In this document: in pieces, positions 1 through 9,467 of the stretch | Position numbering within the stretch: position 1 is the first letter of the stretch | Layout of the letters: the number at the start of each line of letters is the position of its first letter | The notes under the pieces: generated by a model | What the model was told of the DNA's origin: nothing | Database searches by the model: none | Seen by the model: the letters and a program-made list of their open reading frames with translations, nothing else | Position numbers and translations under genes: made by a program | DNA from: a virus | Strand: one strand, 5' to 3' | DNA: 21,906 bases | Virus genome (UHGV): UHGV-1665900

Positions 1-86
1 CGCTGATGTCCGGCAGTGCTTTTGCCGTTACGCACCACCCCGTCAGTAGCTGAACAGGAGGGACAGCTGATAGAAACAGAAGCCAC
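1..86 (-). CDS. insA: IS1 InsA, N-terminal fragment (partial, continues beyond window)
   Basis: Minus-strand frame from GTG at 86..84 translates to (M)[27 protein letters not shown]..., the zinc-finger N-terminus of IS1 InsA. Not in the ORF track because it is truncated by the window edge. Confidence 0.7.
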
Positions 87-141
87 TGGAGCACCTCAAA
101 AACACCATCATACACTAAATCAGTAAGTTGGCAGCATCACC
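1..141 (-). mobile_element. IS1-family insertion sequence, left-end fragment continuing off the window start; terminal inverted repeat at about 119..141
   Basis: Reverse complement of 1..141 reads GGTGATGCTGCCAACTTACTGATTTAGTGTATGATGG...GTGGCTTCTGTTTCTATCAGCTGTCCC..., which matches the IS1 left terminal repeat and 5' region as I recall it from IS1/Tn9. Recognition is from memory, not a search. Confidence 0.8.
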
Positions 142-388
142 ACGTGAATCTCCATGATTTCTTCGCCACTGCGCGGCTTCAATCTAAGTACAATTCATTT
201 GCAGCATTGTCTGCAGCAGCAACCGCGCTATTCCAGATTATTGGTTTGTAATGCTTACCAGCCCCAAATTAATCAATACCCAGTGGTATTAGCAATGTCC
301 ATTTCAAGTACATACGTTCTTAAGACATTTGGGCACTGTCATGTCTGTCGGGGAGGAGGTTAAAATCCTCTCGTGCAAAATTTCTTAG

Positions 389-751
389 CTAGAGAATACA
401 AAGAACATCATCTGGTGTTAACACAGAGTCTTCTACGTACTCAGGGTGGTTACGTAATACATCTCTCTGATGTCTCAAGATCTGCGCTGGAATTTCTTGC
501 TCATCCACAATTTTGGCAGTATCCAGCAAAATACTGCCACACCTTATTTCCAGCGAAACAAAGCGATTCCACTCTGGACCATTAGAACACAAAAGGTCAA
601 ACAAAACCTCACCTGTAGCCTGTGAATTGCCCAGTATAACAGAAAGCCTCTTCTCGATTTCGTGAACTGAAGTCAAGGGGTTCTCGTAGCCAGTCGCCAT
701 AACGACGGCAATGAGAGCCCCTGAGACGTTAACACCTGTTATTTCAAACAA
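389..751 (-). CDS. hypothetical protein, 120 aa, second gene of the AT-rich two-gene cassette
   Basis: ORF from the track. Its start codon is TTG at 751..749 with an AAGGA Shine-Dalgarno about 8 nt upstream, embedded in the last codons of the upstream gene, whose TGA stop is at 746..744. The overlap implies translational coupling. I recognise no family. Confidence 0.5.
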   Translation of the reverse strand: MFEITGVNVSGALIAVVMATGYENPLTSVHEIEKRLSVILGNSQATGEVLFDLLCSNGPEWNRFVSLEIRCGSILLDTAKIVDEQEIPAQILRHQRDVLRNHPEYVEDSVLTPDDVLCIL

Positions 752-1814
752 TATACAAATCCTTAATAATTCCCCATGCCTGTCTGGCCTTAGTCATCAG
801 TCGTGCCATGTCAGAAACCATACGGCTTGTGTCGACAACTATCTCCATATGAAACAGGCCATGACGTTCTCTGTTAAAGAAAGTATAGGCATCATTAATG
901 GTCTTAACCTTAGCTGACGATAAATTGCATCCAAATTGTTGTTTCAGAATAAATTCACTCCCAATTTTATCAAAATAACGCCCGAAACCATCCTGCGTGA
1001 TTGGCATGCCATATCGGTACATTGTTGATTTAAGTACTCCCTCAACTGAACGTAATTCAGGATACAACAACATACAGTAATCGGGTAAATCGGGGGCGGC
1101 GAGTTTAACACACAGCCCAGAAACGAGCAATTTTTCAACATTCTTATGCAATAGTGGGTACGCATCCCCCATTTCACACTCTAGATGTGAGCGAGCAACT
1201 TCTTTCTGAACTATATACGCTTTGCCATCGTCCTGACGAATGAGAACTTTTTCCAGTCCTTGTAAATCGAGTAGCTCTGACAAGTTGAATATAAACACTC
1301 TATAACATGACAATGGACGCCCTTGTATTTGTAGTGTTCCATTTCTGTGATGCAGACTAACTGTCAACTCATCCTGAAATTCTGGCGAATGAATTTTCCA
1401 CACCGTTGTATGAGTGTTCCGTAAGTATTCGTAAAATTGTATATGTGGCTGCTCTGCTGAGAGCTGAAGTACAGATAAAACGTTCGCTTCAACGAACCCT
1501 TGTAACACCATATTTACCTGTTCAAATTCTGCAGGATTGATGGTTTCATAGAGATCATCAGCCAACTCTTTTCCAAGATTATGATTAGCTCCTGTTTGAT
1601 ACTGGACTGTAGACGTCCCTCCGTTATTATAGAAAATGTTAACAGTTGCCAAAGCTTCTCCTGGTTTAGCAAACACAACCCGAAGTCCTGCTCTTGCACC
1701 AGGCATTGGTCCAATTGAATGGACGGAATAGTTTTTATTTTCAATAAATGCCCTAGACGTAGCCTCAATAGTTGTCCGATCTAAATTTAAATTAGTGTAG
1801 TTCCTGACTGTCAT
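744..1814 (-). CDS. hypothetical protein of unknown function (356 aa from ATG at 1814; 393 aa if the unsupported upstream ATG at 1925 is used), first gene of the AT-rich cassette
   Basis: Long uninterrupted minus-strand ORF in AT-rich DNA. The ATG at 1814 has AGGG about 10 nt upstream; the ATG at 1925 has no purine-rich RBS and lies only about 23 nt inside the foreign-DNA junction. No Walker A, HNH/zinc or transmembrane features are visible by eye. Confidence 0.6.
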   Translation of the reverse strand: MTVRNYTNLNLDRTTIEATSRAFIENKNYSVHSIGPMPGARAGLRVVFAKPGEALATVNIFYNNGGTSTVQYQTGANHNLGKELADDLYETINPAEFEQVNMVLQGFVEANVLSVLQLSAEQPHIQFYEYLRNTHTTVWKIHSPEFQDELTVSLHHRNGTLQIQGRPLSCYRVFIFNLSELLDLQGLEKVLIRQDDGKAYIVQKEVARSHLECEMGDAYPLLHKNVEKLLVSGLCVKLAAPDLPDYCMLLYPELRSVEGVLKSTMYRYGMPITQDGFGRYFDKIGSEFILKQQFGCNLSSAKVKTINDAYTFFNRERHGLFHMEIVVDTSRMVSDMARLMTKARQAWGIIKDLYIV

Positions 1815-1873
1815 TTGCTTAACCCTATAAAAAAATTTAGCAAACTCTACAATATAGCCCCTCTTTAGTCTAA

Positions 1874-2236
1874 TCAGGCGCTGTATCCTGAAATCGGGTA
1901 CCGATAATATCCCTCCTGCAGCCATGTGTTGGTGTTAACAAGATACTGTGTATCAATTGAATCCGTCAGATTGCAAAAGTTGATGCCTCTTTCGCGCAGT
2001 TCCTCCACCAGCACGACAAGATGCCGCATACTGCGCCCTAACCTGTCCAGCTTCCAGACAACCAGAGTGTCACCTGCCGATAATGTCCTGAGCAGTTTTT
2101 TCAGTCCGGGCCTTTCGGACTTCGTACCGCTTATCTTGTCTTCAAAAATCAGTTCACATCCTACACAGTTCAACGCATTACGTTGTAGATCGGTGTTCTG
2201 GTCATTTGTTGATACGCGTACATAGCCAATAAGCAT
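1874..2236 (-). pseudogene. pin: Din-family serine DNA invertase (Pin/Gin/Cin/Hin-like), truncated after about residue 96 and fused to unrelated sequence; probably inactive
   Basis: From ATG at 2236 (GGGAG RBS about 9 nt upstream) the translation is [22 protein letters not shown]...DTLVVWKLDRLGRSM.HL..LV.ELRERGINF..LTDSIDT, which is a serine-recombinase catalytic domain. After LTDSIDT it continues QYLVNTNTWLQEGYYRYPISGYSA*, unlike the expected remainder of the catalytic domain and the C-terminal helix-turn-helix. The [12 protein letters not shown] extension in the ORF track is probably not translated. Confidence 0.85.
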
Positions 2237-2290
2237 GGTGGATCTCCCTGACAAAAGCAGGAATGATGCCATTTGCTCGTTATTTCTGCA

Positions 2291-2316
2291 TTTTCATAAA
2301 CGTTGGTTTGGGAGAA
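2291..2316. other. Din-type inversion crossover site, left copy (pix/gix-like)
   Basis: ttttcataaacg-tt-ggtttgggagaa has the two 12-bp half-sites around a 2-bp core that is typical of hix/gix sites. Its reverse complement ttctcccaaacc-aa-cgttt... matches 4164..4189 at 18 of its first 19 positions. Confidence 0.6.
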
Positions 2317-2637
2317 GCGGCAAAACGGAATGTGGGAACAGGGGAAAATCAGATACCTGATATGTCATCATATGCATCAGGTTCAGGCTGGCGAAAAATG
2401 CCAGATGGTTCAATTGAACAGTGGGGACGAATTAGTTTTCCTGGTGAACACGGGCCTGTATCCGCCAATGTTTCATTCCCGATTCCATTTACACAGACAC
2501 CGGGAATTGTAATTGTGTGCGATGGTGGTTTCGGGGGCGGGAATATGTGGGGGGCGACCAACTGGAGCACTACCGGCTTCATAGCTCACTGCAATTATGG
2601 TCTTGAAGGTGGTGCGTTTTTCGCTAAGGGCTGGTAA
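2303..2637 (+). CDS. alternative tail-fibre C-terminal cassette (Sv'-like), promoterless and without its own start; expressed only after inversion fuses it to the constant part of the fibre gene
   Basis: The open frame reads ...[18 protein letters not shown]...[16 protein letters not shown]...AKGW*. The crossover site encodes (N)VGLGE here and (LEN)LGLGE in the fibre gene at 4164..4189, so inversion would keep the frame. Confidence 0.55.
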
Positions 2638-3080
2638 TGATGAAATATCTGTACGTAAACAACCTGGCATATCCTTACGAACTTCAGTCTCTTTATGTTG
2701 AAAAAGGTGAATGGCCTGAAGAAAAAGGTGTTGATATAGACGAAGTAATTTTCAGGGAATATTTCTATGATACACCACCAGAAGGAAAATACAGATGTGT
2801 CGGAGAGGATGGACTGCCTGCATGGGCAGATATTCCTCCACCAACACGTGAAGAACAAATTGCATCAGCCGAAACTAAAAAGCAGCAATTGATTAACCAG
2901 GCCAACGAATACATAAACAGTAAACAATGGCCAGGTAAAGCATCAATTGGTCGTCTGAAAGGTGAGGAACTGGCGCAATATAATTTGTGGCTGGATTATC
3001 TGGACGCACTGGAACTGGTCGATACTTCCGGTGCGCCAGATATTGAATGGTCTACGCCTCCGGCAGTTCAGGCCAGATGA
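2637..3080 (+). CDS. tail fibre assembly protein, alternative copy (U'-like)
   Basis: 147-aa ORF whose ATG overlaps the stop of the Sv' cassette (TAATG). Its C-terminus ...LWLDYLDALELVDTSGAPDIEWSTPP resembles the conserved Tfa C-terminal motif and parallels the minus-strand copy (...LDYIDAVTATDTSTAPDVIWPELP). It converges on that copy. Confidence 0.8.
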   Translation: MMKYLYVNNLAYPYELQSLYVEKGEWPEEKGVDIDEVIFREYFYDTPPEGKYRCVGEDGLPAWADIPPPTREEQIASAETKKQQLINQANEYINSKQWPGKASIGRLKGEELAQYNLWLDYLDALELVDTSGAPDIEWSTPPAVQAR

Positions 3081-3645
3081 CGTCCGGCGCTGTGCTGGTA
3101 TCTGTTGCCGTCACCGCGTCAATGTAATCCAGCACAGCGTTAAGTCGGGTGTTTTCTGGCTGCGTCAGCTTCCGCCCAGCCTGTAATTTCAGTTGAATCA
3201 GACTGATGGAAGCCATTGCAGCATCAATCAGCGACTGGCGCTGTGCTTCTGCCGCTTCTACTGCGGCGCTATGCTGTGCCTCGGTATCCGTCACCCATTT
3301 CTCACCATCCCATTTATCGTATGGCGTTAACGGTGAAAGCGTGACATAACCGTCTTTGATGGCACCGATATAATCCACTGTAACAGCTGCGCCATTTTCA
3401 GTTGAGTAAACGGTCTCATTGCGATGGTCTTCTTCATGGCTCCATCCCTTACCCGTAAATACTGCCACTTTTCCCGGGATGTTTTCGCCCGGGTCAATAC
3501 CAGTGGAACAGGCGGGTATACTTACGCCAGTATTAATATATTCATCAGACCAGCCGGTATATTCATACGTTACTGCATTATAATAAAAACAACGCATATC
3601 GCCCGGCACTGTAGCCAGCCCATTTTCATCAAAAACAGGTATCAT
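3052..3645 (-). CDS. tail fibre assembly protein (U-like, currently expressed orientation)
   Basis: 197-aa ORF immediately downstream of the tail fibre gene with start/stop overlap; conserved Tfa-type C-terminus. Confidence 0.85.
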   Translation of the reverse strand: MIPVFDENGLATVPGDMRCFYYNAVTYEYTGWSDEYINTGVSIPACSTGIDPGENIPGKVAVFTGKGWSHEEDHRNETVYSTENGAAVTVDYIGAIKDGYVTLSPLTPYDKWDGEKWVTDTEAQHSAAVEAAEAQRQSLIDAAMASISLIQLKLQAGRKLTQPENTRLNAVLDYIDAVTATDTSTAPDVIWPELPEA

Positions 3646-4466
3646 TATTTAGCCCTCACCAGAAAGTTAAATGCAATATTTCGTGGACGGGTTTCTGTAT
3701 CTACATTTCCACTAATTTCACCATAACGTTTAACACTACGAGAGCTAAGAGCTCGTAGTGAGGAAGGCACCTTAAGACCGGGTTCGTCCGTTTTAACTAT
3801 TCCCCCGTCACCGTATGTAGCCAGTATTCCTGGGTTTACTCCTTCCCGTGCACTTCCTGCGGCAAGCCCGTCCCCCGTCCACAATTCCATATTGTGTGCA
3901 TGATCCATAATTGTGTGTGATTGCCCTGAAAGTAGGGTACGTCCGACATCAATCCCGCGCCCATCATCCCAGATACGAATGAAATCACCCCGTGCGTCAG
4001 GTAATGCTAGCGCCGGAAACACTTTCGCCAGCACAGGGTAATCAGTGGCAGAGAATTTCGCGCCGTTGAACTTCAAAAACACCATACTGGACCAACTGTC
4101 GATTACAGTATTTGGCATTGCGGCGGACGGCCAGAAGAACGGAACGCCAATAGCTGGAGCACCTTCTCCCAAACCAAGGTTTTCGAGAGCCGTTTTCACC
4201 GTGCCATCCGATTTGATATCGCCAAACGGATTCTTGCGGCTTAACAGCAGCGCACGAAGCGCTGTAAGCAGCTGGTCATGCCGCCCCTTCTCTAGGCTGG
4301 CACCGGATGCCTCCACAACACTGCAAAGTTCCTCCTGCAACATGTCAAAGTAGTCATCATCCAGATCGGTGGCAGGTGTGCCGGTCTGGGGGTTACCACG
4401 GGTAAAACCGTTCTTACCCGCGCCGAACTTATCCTTCTGCGCGGTTTTCGTGTCTATACGATGCAT
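3645..4466 (-). CDS. tail fibre protein (constant N-terminal part plus currently joined variable C-terminal part)
   Basis: 273-aa [49 protein letters not shown]..., an N-terminus typical of enterobacterial prophage side tail fibres. The right crossover site lies inside it at 4164..4189. Confidence 0.85.
4164..4189. other. Din-type inversion crossover site, right copy, inside the tail fibre gene
   Basis: ttctcccaaacc-aa-ggttttcgagag, in inverted orientation relative to 2291..2316. Confidence 0.6.
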
Positions 4467-4469
4467 GGA

Positions 4470-5054
4470 TTACTCCGGATATTTAAAAATTACGTAGGTA
4501 TGCGACGGGCAGAGTTTGTTAAGCACACATTCGACAACGGTGTCGCCCCAGATACGCAGCGCGGAATCACAGGGATCGCCACATGTCATCCAGGTGGTGT
4601 TTGTGGCGGCTGGCATGTTGACCTGCCAGTAATACCGCCATTCCGGCGCATTCACCGCGTCAGTACAGACCGATGAGCAGGTGAACGTGCTTTTGTCGTA
4701 TCGCGTGATGTTGGCATCTGGTCTGCCCAGGGCAGCAAGCTGTGCAAGGTAAAAATCCTCATTGATGCCGCCCGCCAGATTAACCTTCGCATCCAGCCGT
4801 TGCTGACGCTGGCGAAGGGTCTGCGTCCCTGCCGGAATACATTCATCCGGCAGGCCGCACAGACGCTCCCAGCGGTTTATCAGTTCAGTGGTGGTGCGCG
4901 GATCCAGCTCCCGCATCAGGGCATCCGCACGCTGATGAACACGGGTTAATGACGGTGCCGCACCGGCAATCGCCGGATCGCTGGCTGACCACGCCGGACC
5001 GGGGGGCAACAGTGCCGACAACAGACGGATGTAATCATCGTTTGTCACGTCCAT
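4470..5054 (-). CDS. ymfQ: baseplate protein, YmfQ / Mu gp48-like
   Basis: 194-aa [25 protein letters not shown]..., with the position and size of e14 YmfQ, immediately upstream of the fibre gene. Confidence 0.75.
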
Positions 5055-6103
5055 GAAATCGTCCCCAGAACCGCCAGTTCATTTTTTGCAATGGAGATAT
5101 TGTCTGTCGGTGCAAGCAACTGATGGCTGTATTCCCCGTTCGCACCGGAAATCGCCTCACTGATACGCGATACCTTCAGTTCTCCCTGCGGATAACCATC
5201 ACGCAGCAGGAACGAACGCAACTCCGCGGTGATGGCAGCCCGTATTTCCGGTGTGTCCGGCGTCACGCGGATATGAAAATCCACCGTATGTGCCACCGGC
5301 CTAAACACATACAAATCAGAGCCTGCCACCGGGGCCAGTGGCTCGATATGTTGTCTTGCCGCCGTTTCCGTTGATTCTTCCGGAATGGGATTAATCAGGT
5401 CACTGCTGGCAATCATCACACCGACAGTTCCCGTTCCCATCCAGTGACGGTATGTCCATGCGCGGGTAATGCCGGGCACTTCTTTAGCCCAGACAACATA
5501 GTCCCCGTCAGCCCCGCCCTGCGGCGTCCAGTAATACCGCTCAATGACGCGGGCGCGCCACGTTTCCAGCTCTTCAGTATCAAATCCGCCTGTCAGGGTG
5601 TCAGCCACACCGGAAGACGGCAGACCATTCACCGGCGTGACCAGGATTAATGCCGTACCGTCGTCAGCGTTACCGACCGCACCTGCACTTGAGCAGGCGA
5701 TCGGCACGCGCAGGACACCACCGGAGCTGGTTGCATCGTCAGTTGTCGTGTACTGCACCAGGTCATCGCGCTGAATAACACTCCCGGCGGTCACCTTCAG
5801 GCCATCGCTGACACCTTCCCAGCGCATATACCCACTGGCAGCCGTGGCTCCCTTGCGCGGACACCGTTTCATCGCAGCATGTCGCGCCAGCCAGGACTCA
5901 TCGCACAGGTCAGGCAGCATGTTCATTGCCAGATAATCGATGTAACCGTAAACCGTATGCAGCGCCGCCGCATACACCTTTGCCCGCACGTCTTCATCCA
6001 TGCGCCGGAGCGTGTCGCTGACGTCCAGCCTGGCGAATAAATCGTTACGGAGCATACTGATATTTTCTGCCAGCGTCGGGCGCTGAAATTCACTGTCCGC
6101 CAT
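5045..6103 (-). CDS. baseplate J-like protein (Mu gp47-like)
   Basis: 352-aa ORF in the conserved baseplate position between the gp46-like and YmfQ-like genes; overlapping stops and starts. Confidence 0.75.
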
Positions 6104-6518
6104 GCGTTATCGCACTCCACAGATCATCAAAAGAAATCATTACCGGTCCGTCACGACGCCAGAGAGTGATACTGTTACCCAGTTCATTAATCCCGGTGCG
6201 GCGGATATCCAGATCAATACGGGACACCACGCCGTCATCAATCATCCATTGCAGGCATTCGCGGATATACCCCCTTACCGTCTGCACCAGCTGATTGGTC
6301 AGTTTGCTGCGCTGAAGCAGCCACAGTCGGGAGCCGTAACGGTCATTCTGTACCGCAGGCCAGGTATCCCCCCACCATCCCATCGGGACGTCGGCATTGT
6401 CATCAGGTTCAGCCCGCCGCCAGGTGAACAGGGAAATCACCACGGCACGGGTCAGCGGATCCATCGGTGCGCTGGCACAGGTGCGTTTACCGTTCACCGT
6501 CAGCCACAGTTCCATCAT
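6090..6518 (-). CDS. baseplate protein, GP46 family (Mu gp46-like)
   Basis: 142-aa ORF in the conserved position between the V-like and J-like genes. Confidence 0.65.
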   Translation of the reverse strand: MMELWLTVNGKRTCASAPMDPLTRAVVISLFTWRRAEPDDNADVPMGWWGDTWPAVQNDRYGSRLWLLQRSKLTNQLVQTVRGYIRECLQWMIDDGVVSRIDLDIRRTGINELGNSITLWRRDGPVMISFDDLWSAITHGGQ

Positions 6519-7063
6519 GCCTCCATCGCTTTATCAGGTTTGTCGGTGTTACTGCCCTGACCGTTCTCTCTGTGACGATGCCCGTTATAGGCAAGCCGCA
6601 TCGCTGACATGGTGGTGCCGCTGGAGTCGCACAGGTCTTTCACCTGTCCGGTCACTTCCAGGTCCATTTCAAAACGAGCCTTAGGCGCATTGCGAAACGT
6701 GATCGTTTTACCTGCACCGTCCACCACGATCCCCGCCCGGGTCAGCGTCACGGACTGCCCCTGATCGTCATAGACAGCCACCTCACCCGTCTGCAGCCCT
6801 TTCAGGCGGTAGCGTCGGTCCGACACCGTAACAACCACCGCATGAGAACGGTCACCATCCGGAAACAACACCACCGCTTCCGCACCGCTGTTTGCCCTTG
6901 CGGTAAAACCGTAGGGTTCAAGATGTTCAACCCCGGCTTTGGGTTCACCGGCAATCAGGGACACATCCACGGTCTGACATTTCGTGGCGGCACTGATGCT
7001 TTTCACCACCGCCCGCCCAATCAGGCCGAGGAGTTGTCGCTGTATGGTTTCAATCGTCCTCAT
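6515..7063 (-). CDS. baseplate assembly protein V-like (spike, Mu gp45-like)
   Basis: 182-aa ORF in synteny after the hub gene. Confidence 0.7.
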   Translation of the reverse strand: MRTIETIQRQLLGLIGRAVVKSISAATKCQTVDVSLIAGEPKAGVEHLEPYGFTARANSGAEAVVLFPDGDRSHAVVVTVSDRRYRLKGLQTGEVAVYDDQGQSVTLTRAGIVVDGAGKTITFRNAPKARFEMDLEVTGQVKDLCDSSGTTMSAMRLAYNGHRHRENGQGSNTDKPDKAMEA

Positions 7064-8142
7064 CAGAACGGGTCCTCCTGTACTCTGGCTTTTTTCTTTT
7101 TCCGCGCGCCGGGATCTTCGGGTTCAGGCAGATAAGCATCAGGCGGGCCGACACGGATTTCCGTCAGGGTGCCGTTCTGGTCCTGAGTAAACGTGACTTC
7201 CGAGACAAGCAGTTCGGTATTATCGAAACCACAGACCGGATCAAAGACAATCACCCGCTGGTTGGGCTGCCACAGCGTACCGTTACCCTGTCGCCAGCCC
7301 TGCACCACATAGGTGGTTTCATCCGTCCGCGCCGCCCGTTGCCGGGCTTCAAAGTCAGCACGCGCAATACAGCCTGCCCCCGTGGCCTGCCCTGTCTGCC
7401 TGATATACATCGGACGGTAACGGGCAATAAATGCGTCCTCTGTGCGGGCCCGCAGCGCGGTGGTGGTGGCCTCACCGAAATCATCGTCGTTTCCGGCACG
7501 CTGCCCCGCCACCTGGTAAACAGAAAACCGCTCCCGGATACTCTTCTCCGTATCGCAGGAAAGGATGTTTTCCCCGAGTACCAGCGCAGTATGTGCCCGC
7601 GTTGAGCCAATACCGCCAATCACCAGCCTGCCGTGCGGGTCGTCGTAAGCCAGTGCCTGCTGCTGACCGAGTATTTTGTTGATCACCTCAATCACCGTTT
7701 CACCGTGATCAGGCTGGACATCAGGAATAACACCCGACGGCGCACCGTTGTTCACCACCTCAATGCCGAAAGGCGCAGCAAGCGCCTGCGCAATCTGTAC
7801 CAGCGATCGTCCGTTAAAGTGTGTCGGTTCGGCTGCACAGTCAATCAGGTCAGCGGTCAGACTGCGTCCGGCAATACCGGTGCTGACCGAACGGGCATCG
7901 TAACGAACGGGCGTCGCCTCCACCCAGCCGGTGATCACCAGCTCATCACCAATCAGCACCTCCACTTTTGAACCGTTTTTAATGCGCGGCTGAAGCGTGG
8001 TGATACCCTCATCACCCGGCCACTGGCGGGTGATCTCCACACTGAAATCCCGCGCCAGTCGTTCAACACCGGCACCGATGCGCACCGATGTCCAGCCATT
8101 CCACTCCCGGCCATTTACCCGTAGCGTGACATTGTCGTTCAT
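7063..8142 (-). CDS. baseplate hub protein (Mu P / gp44-like)
   Basis: 359-aa ORF following the DNA-circulation-like gene; order N-P-V-gp46-J as in Mu-type tails. Confidence 0.7.
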   Translation of the reverse strand: MNDNVTLRVNGREWNGWTSVRIGAGVERLARDFSVEITRQWPGDEGITTLQPRIKNGSKVEVLIGDELVITGWVEATPVRYDARSVSTGIAGRSLTADLIDCAAEPTHFNGRSLVQIAQALAAPFGIEVVNNGAPSGVIPDVQPDHGETVIEVINKILGQQQALAYDDPHGRLVIGGIGSTRAHTALVLGENILSCDTEKSIRERFSVYQVAGQRAGNDDDFGEATTTALRARTEDAFIARYRPMYIRQTGQATGAGCIARADFEARQRAARTDETTYVVQGWRQGNGTLWQPNQRVIVFDPVCGFDNTELLVSEVTFTQDQNGTLTEIRVGPPDAYLPEPEDPGARKKKKARVQEDPF

Positions 8143-9467
8143 TGCACTGGCACCTTCAGAGGGATCACCGGCACAAAGCCGGGATGCGTAATGGCATTAC
8201 GCCGGATAATGTCCGCATCACGCGCCGCGTTATCAAACCAGGTCGCCGCCAGCACCAGCGCGGGTAAAACCTCATCCGGTGTGCGCTGAATGATCCGTGC
8301 AGACTGTTCAAGGCGCGTGTTGATATCCGCATTCAGATCTGCTTTCACCCGGCGCAGTGCCAGAAACAGCGCATCACTGGTTGTACGGGACAACTCCTTA
8401 TCAATTGCCGTATTCAGTGTGTCGCGAATGTCAGTCAGTTCTTCCCACGTTGGCAGGTCAACCGTGTTTTTCACCGCCGGTGCATTGTTCAGTGCCGGAT
8501 GCGTGACGGAAGGCCAGCCAGTGCTCTGCGCAGGTGTTGTTGACTGCCCCACTGCGGCATTCTGCATCACCGCGGAAGTTGTTGGCGCAGGCAATCGGGT
8601 GACGGCATACGCCGCTTCGCTGATTGCGGTCGTACGAAGGGTACTGGCAACCTCGTTACGCTGATGCGTCGCCGTGGCGGTGGTTTTACTGTCCGTTTTC
8701 CAGACGCCGCGCGGTTGCAGATCGCTGCCGAGGCTGACACCGGAAAGCGTTTTGATCATGGTGACCAGGTCGCTGGCGTTACCATAAAGGCGTTTCCCGG
8801 TACGCCACATTTTCTGCACCTGCTCAACGAAATTTTTGCCTGACGATGGTGGCGGCAGAAGTACCGAGATATCCCCCTGCAACAGCCTGGCAGCATCCGA
8901 TACGGCAGAATCCACCACTTTCATCGCATCAGAAACATACCCAAGCATTGTGCTGGCATTACCGACGACGTCGTTCTGCACAAAATCCGCCACGCCATCG
9001 ATACTGAAACCGCTGAAGCTGTCACTGATGCAGTCATCCAGTGCAGAACAGGATGACATCAGCGTCTGCGCCGTCGCCGCACCTGATGTGGGGTAAGAGA
9101 GTTCTCCCGCTTCGACAAACTTCAGGTCAAAGCGGACAATACGCCCTTCACTCTTCGATGTGCTGACCCGAACCTCTCCATCAACACAGACTTTCAGCTC
9201 ACCGTAAGTCGGATGGACAAGCGTGCCGGGACCGGGTTTATTCAGCGCGTCAATCAGGCGATCGCGCTGGTCAAAGCAGTCATCTCCCACCACATAAGCC
9301 GTGATGGACGGGCGGAAAGTGATTTTCCCCAGGTCTTCAGTATAGGGTTTGTCGCGGTTCGGGTATTCGTGCGTTTCCACACGACGACCGGTTCCCGCAC
9401 TTTCTTCTTCAACCTTAAACGGCACACCGCGAAATGACGCGTCCTGAAGTCTGTCTTTCCACGTCAT
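8139..9467 (-). CDS. DNA circulation protein (Mu N / gp43-like)
   Basis: ORF with N-terminal motif ...WKDRLQDASFRGVPF.... Preferred start is ATG at 9467 (MTWKDRL) with GGAG about 7 nt upstream, rather than the ORF-track start at 9509. Confidence 0.7.
   Translation of the reverse strand: MTWKDRLQDASFRGVPFKVEEESAGTGRRVETHEYPNRDKPYTEDLGKITFRPSITAYVVGDDCFDQRDRLIDALNKPGPGTLVHPTYGELKVCVDGEVRVSTSKSEGRIVRFDLKFVEAGELSYPTSGAATAQTLMSSCSALDDCISDSFSGFSIDGVADFVQNDVVGNASTMLGYVSDAMKVVDSAVSDAARLLQGDISVLLPPPSSGKNFVEQVQKMWRTGKRLYGNASDLVTMIKTLSGVSLGSDLQPRGVWKTDSKTTATATHQRNEVASTLRTTAISEAAYAVTRLPAPTTSAVMQNAAVGQSTTPAQSTGWPSVTHPALNNAPAVKNTVDLPTWEELTDIRDTLNTAIDKELSRTTSDALFLALRRVKADLNADINTRLEQSARIIQRTPDEVLPALVLAATWFDNAARDADIIRRNAITHPGFVPVIPLKVPVQ

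Follow-up and report, generated by a model that had tools for sequence, protein, structure and literature searches.

An IS1 element at the cargo end of an rnlAB-carrying prophage probably stands in place of 752 bp of internal cargo DNA

The virus genome UHGV-1665900 (21,906 nucleotides, one strand; this whole stretch is called the window below) begins within what appears to be an IS1 element that directly adjoins the cargo region of a prophage. The locus therefore raises the question of what the insertion sequence did there, i.e. whether it merely inserted, removed the DNA next to it, or deleted or displaced the original end of the prophage together with its attachment-site junction, the last being a possibility raised by an earlier reading of the letters without database searches (the sequence-only reading). 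The features of the window that concern the element itself are the following.

1..141, minus strand: IS1 nucleotides 1-141, counted from the end with the left terminal inverted repeat (IRL), as reverse complement; determined against full 768-bp copies at the same junction in complete genomes
119..141, minus strand: IRL of IS1, 23 bp, GGTGATGCTGCCAACTTACTGAT; exact pattern match
1..86, minus strand: 5' part of insA with a GTG start at 86, reading leftwards and away from the cargo; translation

The identity, coordinates and orientation of the IS1 end were confirmed. The 23-bp IRL is the sole match to an IS1 inverted repeat in the window, with none expected by chance (100 shuffles), and translation of the reverse complement of 1..141 yields the N-terminus of InsA (28 codons) leftwards from the GTG at 86, a start that corresponds to IS1 nucleotide 56. 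Across these 141 positions the window shows no difference from the IS1 copy of the complete genome L003 and a single one from that of L001, at window position 15, where its base is unlike that of L001 and E. coli E6 and the same as that of L003. In the complete genomes that share the junction, RefSeq places over window 1..141 the feature 'IS1-like element IS1B family transposase, programmed frameshift'; in L001 this coding sequence (7389-8086) is in two pieces with a programmed frameshift, in keeping with the -1 frameshift by which IS1 makes InsAB', and has a boundary equal to window 86, L001 position 8001 being window position 1. InsA of the L001 copy gave Pfam matches to Zn_ribbon_InsA and HTH_Tnp_IS1, PF03811 (E = 3e-21) and PF12759 (E = 1.7e-30), and InsB, encoded outside the window and tested in relatives, matched DDE_Tnp_IS1 in the L001 copy (PF03400, E = 9.8e-78). 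Furthermore, the right inverted repeat (IRR, GGTAATGACTCCAACTTATTGAT) lies at the far end in L001 and L003, 768 bp from the IRL, and the length between the junctions is 768 bp in 8/8 complete genomes, the window holding the first 141 nt. IS1 is 768 bp long and generates target duplications of 8 or 9 bp (PMC12428005). The first base outside the element is 142, and no promoter or terminator of relevance to IS1 stood out from background in a scan of 1..2400. Thus the IRL match, the InsA translation, the RefSeq annotation and the Pfam matches bear out the sequence-only reading that the window starts inside an IS1 whose left inverted repeat ends at 141; insA is indeed transcribed away from the cassette, and the flank from 142 onward starts ACGTGAATC, as had been read.

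The stop of the element at position 1 is of technical origin. The window is the entire metagenome contig k141_1033 (21,906 bp, ENA ERZ27272196), which was found through a protein look-up with the 120-aa truncated invertase encoded further on in the window. We take the name k141_1033 to follow the MEGAHIT convention for a final k of 141, and the IS1 portion of the contig, 141 nt, is exactly one assembler k-mer. A de Bruijn assembler would halt at the first k-mer lying wholly within a repeat, given more than one IS1 context in the sample. The junction recurs in five further contigs, whose sources are two draft genomes at NCBI and three sequencing runs assembled by Logan, and these also end inside IS1, at 28, 30, 30, 103 and 204 nt into the element. 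Moreover, the look-up with the 120-aa invertase (its true start) returned the source contig and six other places, every one of which ends inside IS1; the 132-aa version of the protein, beginning at the first ATG, is not on record. The IS1 appears cut because the short-read assembler stopped at the repeat, and the 141-nt cut is an assembly signature, not a biological truncation. The claim that the window opens inside IS1 hence stands for the element and needs correction as to the reason, which is that the window is the complete contig.

To see what lies beyond the contig end, the junctions were followed in complete genomes. Of 5,426 complete E. coli genomes, eight contain the full length of a 120-nt query made up of 60 nt from each side of the right junction (IS1 and flank); a left-junction query hit the same eight, exactly 768 bp away in each, plus a ninth genome, E. 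coli E6 (L012). In all eight complete genomes IS1 is bordered by CAGTTGGAA on the left and ACGTGAATC on the right (sequence read in L001 and L003); the longer left flank reads ...ACAGTTGGAA (elsewhere given as AAGCAATACAGTTGGAA and GCCACGAAAACAAGCAATACAGTTGGAA). A target-site duplication of 8-9 bp is absent from the eight genomes, so that the search for a duplicate of 142..150 proposed by the sequence-only reading, run here in the complete relatives, returned none, the two flanks being CAGTTGGAA and ACGTGAATC. The comparison with IS1-free relatives, likewise proposed, gave a defined difference. 5CRE51 (L004), a relative without the IS1, has the end of the left flank at 7248 and the first base of the right flank at 8001 (= window 142); IS1 stands in place of the 752 bp between them. 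Two junction searches of the complete genomes for intermediates, in which IS1 would have an intact duplication at either breakpoint, found none. The adjacent deletion at which the sequence-only reading had hinted therefore finds support in the 752 bp missing relative to IS1-free relatives and in the lack of a duplication in 8/8 closed genomes.

Missing duplications at insertion sequences are usually due to adjacent deletion or to recombination between insertion sequences (PMC11708052, E. coli experimental evolution lines). At the present locus, IS1 would have landed in the cargo region of the prophage, and the 752 bp adjoining it would then have been lost, either by an IS1-promoted adjacent deletion or by recombination between two direct IS1 copies; either route would leave a single IS1 with unmatched flanks. 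It is probable that this structure, IS1 plus the 752-bp loss, with the same far junction as in the complete relatives, is also that at the IS1 of the window, because window 142..2133 is 100% identical to L001 (1,992 bp), the recombinant invertase gene pin is shared and L001 lies at thrW. L001 is evidently a deletion derivative of a window-like prophage at thrW, since the mosaic pin is common to both up to 2133 and the two diverge thereafter; no complete E. coli genome covers at least 80% of window 1..9000, so that the exact arrangement of the window, which GCA_003291935.1 shares, does not occur among the closed genomes, and L001 is the nearest. Our confidence goes no higher because of the case of E6.

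E. coli E6 (L012 9061-9828) retains the left junction but has a new right one, with 11 internal differences in its IS1 and with rnlAB and pin deleted. Its arrangement resembles the outcome of a later recombination event with a second IS1 copy, and shows both that the instability lies on the IRL side of this IS1 and that the locus keeps rearranging.

These observations bear on three other accounts of the window's IS1. A simple insertion with an intact 8-9-bp duplication of ACGTGAATC and nothing lost is the default outcome of IS1 transposition (PMC12428005), and the far end of the window's element is not in the contig; however, the corresponding arrangement ACGTGAATC followed by GGTAATGACTCC (the duplication, then IRR) occurs in 0/8 complete genomes with the junction, and the account needs an independent hit at the same nucleotide and in the same orientation, which makes it very improbable. 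The IS1 of the window might instead border a different and possibly larger rearrangement, e.g. through recombination with another chromosomal IS1, in which case the far flank would not be the 379-codon open reading frame (ORF) found there in the relatives. The far side does lie beyond the contig, the contig break shows at least two IS1 contexts in the sample, E6 is a reciprocal case with the same left junction, a new right junction and another IS1 variant, and the base at window 15, L003-like and not that of L001 or E6, suggests that IS1 copies at the locus exchange sequence. Since the left junction is nevertheless the same in 8/8 complete genomes with the right junction, L001 included, we consider such a rearrangement unlikely. 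A mis-assembly, in which an IS1 end was joined to the prophage contig and the source strain has no IS1 at this place, could appeal to the contig end being a repeat k-mer, but the identical junction is present in eight closed genomes and five further contigs, and the k-mers across 141/142 are unique flank-plus-IS1 sequence; its probability is practically nil. The loss of 752 bp at an IS1 with the far junction of the complete relatives thus remains the preferred reading, and the content of the lost segment and its surroundings in the relatives are as follows.

264 bp of the 752-bp segment: unassigned sequence
28 bp, identical: copy of the ssrA 3' end (L004 7513-7696, 184 bp together with the next part)
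156 bp, 90-95% identical: homology to the DNA downstream of ssrA in about 4,190 genomes
Within the 752-bp segment: upstream (promoter) region and first 53 codons of an 89-codon ORF
L004 7841-8110: the intact 89-codon ORF (WP_000429347.1 in relatives)
Window 142..251, plus strand: 3' remnant of the 89-codon ORF, 36 codons plus stop, cut by the putative IS1-associated deletion
L001 6201-7340 and L004 6076-7215: conserved 379-codon ORF between the partial thrW repeat and IS1 (in L004, its position)

The 156-bp stretch of ssrA downstream homology includes a terminator-like hairpin. The 89-codon ORF had no match in Pfam or PADLOC, and neither had the 379-codon ORF. The full 752-bp segment is present, as in 5CRE51, in only six genomes among 72 genomes that carry the rnlAB module, of which about 64 are without the IS1. 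The remaining IS1-free carriers are presumably arranged like L002, with the module directly after an intact ssrA; in L002 the ssrA-type sequence is the real junction between chromosome and element. The 184-bp ssrA-like piece of L004 is possibly a relic of such an ssrA-type attachment site. As a candidate for the true attachment junction in L004, the 28-bp ssrA match was rejected, given that the homology runs 156 bp into the ssrA downstream flank; it is further excluded because the prophage occupies thrW and has a partial thrW repeat of its own farther outward.

The end of the prophage can be located in the relatives. The prophage of 5CRE51 is complete and integrated at thrW, with its integrase abutting tRNA-Thr and proA, and its cargo end runs past the 752 bp and through the 379-codon ORF to a partial thrW repeat. 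The IS1-bearing L001 retains the partial thrW repeat about 1.6 kb beyond IS1. The real junction between prophage and chromosome is this repeat, and the deletion removed internal cargo DNA, not the prophage end, because the repeat survives in L001. The proposal that IS1 had removed the prophage end or its attachment junction is therefore not upheld, while a deletion did take place and it included attachment-site-like sequence. Directly beyond the thrW repeat, L001 carries a P4-like satellite (1-5600), which encodes an integrase, a polarity-suppression protein and a retron-like RNA-directed DNA polymerase; in 5CRE51 this position is taken by an integrase together with HsdM and an ATPase of the ORC/CDC6 type. 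Defence-carrying elements are arrayed in tandem at thrW.

On the other side of the IS1 remnant, the window continues with the cargo genes, the invertase gene and a tail-fibre segment.

389..751, minus strand: rnlB-family antitoxin gene (Pfam RnlB_antitoxin PF15933, E = 3.5e-24; RefSeq product name in relatives)
744..1814, minus strand: rnlA-family toxin gene (RNase LS type, HEPN), overlapping rnlB by 8 nt; 356 aa in relatives
1874..2236, minus strand: truncated gene of a Pin-type serine invertase, 120 codons, with Pin homology only at 1946..2236 (about 97 codons)
2016..2037, no strand: crossover interval inside pin (alignment; Blast identity with L014 begins at 2016)
2298..4182, no strand: invertible tail-fibre segment of 1,885 bp with 20-bp inverted repeats at 2298-2317 and 4163-4182

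The cargo is a predicted RnlA/RnlB type II toxin-antitoxin system. The Pfam domains RnlA_toxin_N, RnlA_toxin, RnlA-toxin_DBD and HEPN_RnaseLS (PF19417, PF15935, PF19034 and PF18869) were found on 744..1925, and the matches of RnlA and RnlB are all above the curated cut-offs; neither protein matched a model of PADLOC-DB 2.0. IS1 lies 247 bp downstream of the rnlA-rnlB operon, at the cargo ('moron') end of what is probably an SfV/e14-like prophage integrated at thrW, and rnlAB was left untouched by the deletion. The position of the element beside a cargo module could also mean that it is one arm of a composite transposon that mobilised rnlAB, and the module is indeed found both at ssrA and in thrW prophages whose tails differ. 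Yet the 21.9-kb window contains no second IS1 end, the junction is the only query match in three genomes, which accordingly are free of further IS1 IRL ends, the module occurs more often without the IS1 (about 64 of 72 genomes), and the boundaries shared by the modules are the ssrA-like sequence and pin, not IS1 ends. The composite transposon is effectively refuted, with scarcely any probability left to it.

The sequence-only reading had placed an invertase truncation about 1.8 kb from position 141, which agrees with the truncation point at about 1946. Of the invertase, only the N-terminal Resolvase domain gave a Pfam match, which covers residues 15-109 of the 132-aa ORF and positions 2-106 of the 145 in the profile. 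Intact pinE has 184 codons in L013 and L014, and its homology to the window gene stops at about 1946; the C-terminal helix-turn-helix DNA-binding domain of an intact Pin/Gin/Hin/Cin invertase (about 184 aa expected) is absent. The truncation is common to all 72 module-carrying genomes. In addition, the gene is a mosaic, being of the rnlAB-module type to the left of 2016-2037 and, to the right, pinE of an SfV/e14-like prophage (L014). Judging from this pattern, the cargo block may have been joined to the present backbone by homologous recombination within the conserved invertase gene. From about 4,020 on, the window and the late regions of phages SfII, SfI, SfIV and SfV share 97-98% identity. 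The adjacent tail-fibre segment is flipped in L005, a draft genome with the same truncated invertase (99.8% identity), and two Logan contigs break off precisely at 2317, as they might if their read sets contained both orientations. Inversion would need an invertase in trans, because the adjacent one is without a DNA-binding domain. In other prophages (L013 5796-7290 and L014 5833-7221) the slot after pin holds either mcrA beside an icd fragment, as in e14 (an e14-like relative at icd), or a GIY-YIG (LEM-3-like) gene.

The cargo region had been attributed to at least two rearrangements, and at least three can be counted in 1..2300: the truncation of pin at about 1946, the crossover in pin at 2016-2037 and the insertion of IS1 with the loss of 752 bp. 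The block is joined to tails of different kinds, those of a lambda-like siphovirus in L003, L004 and L012 and those of an SfV/Mu-like myovirus in the window and L005, and the IS1 scar is common to L003, with lambda-like tail genes, and to the SfV-like window and L005. The IS1 event would therefore be old, in that strains sharing the 379-codon ORF, IS1, rnlBA and the truncated pin have different tail modules. The scar may predate a swap of the backbone, or the block may have moved between backbones by recombination. Tentatively, and with somewhat less than an even chance in our estimate, the block of partial thrW repeat, 379-codon ORF, IS1, rnlB-rnlA and truncated pin could be a persistent cargo stub at the thrW hot spot, which prophages with unrelated tails join by homologous recombination in the invertase and tail-fibre region, the ssrA-like piece being a relic of an earlier stage of integration at ssrA. 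If so, the predicted RnlAB defence cargo and the IS1 scar outlive successive prophage backbones.

RefSeq genomes already carry annotations of the element, its junction and the genes beside it, and the mechanism is one that textbooks give for insertion sequences, so that nothing here is new. For annotation, it matters that the IS1 interrupts neither rnlAB nor the attachment junction and is not to be taken as the prophage boundary. Furthermore, the locus is a clear case from nature in which the missing target duplication of an IS1 goes back to a loss of known extent (752 bp), and it shows the cargo end of this prophage family to be a patchwork of a truncated and recombinant pin, an IS1 scar and an ssrA-like relic. 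It thus provides context for studies of RnlAB cargo and of prophage mosaicism at thrW and ssrA; beyond that, its importance lies mainly in correct annotation.

The structure resembles the IS-associated deletions described in PMC11708052, which likewise show one insertion sequence with unmatched flanks and a missing block that starts exactly at its end; compared with those cases, the putative deletion is small here (752 bp), is known only through the comparison of natural isolates, and its mechanism is deduced from the end state. As an element, the IS1 is no different from the IS1A/IS1B-type IS1 of Escherichia coli, with which it shares the 23-bp IRL, the insA start and the InsA N-terminal sequence, the copies of the relatives having in addition the 768-bp length, the IRR, the InsA zinc ribbon and helix-turn-helix, the InsB DDE domain and an annotated programmed frameshift; it differs in its setting, being without the 8-9-bp target duplication that a fresh insertion would carry. 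The prophage end is built like those of e14 and the SfV-SfII prophages, which also have pin followed by a variable cargo gene, and the invertible segment and pin match e14-like prophages; in contrast to these, pin is truncated and recombinant here and is followed by rnlAB, the remnant of a small ORF, and IS1. The RnlA-RnlB system was first described in the CP4-57 prophage of E. coli K-12, located at ssrA, and is active against T4 dmd mutants. The predicted system of the window has all four RnlA domains and the RnlB domain, with the toxin gene upstream of and overlapping the antitoxin gene, and in most relatives the module lies directly beside ssrA, the likeness to the K-12 system being one of Pfam domains.
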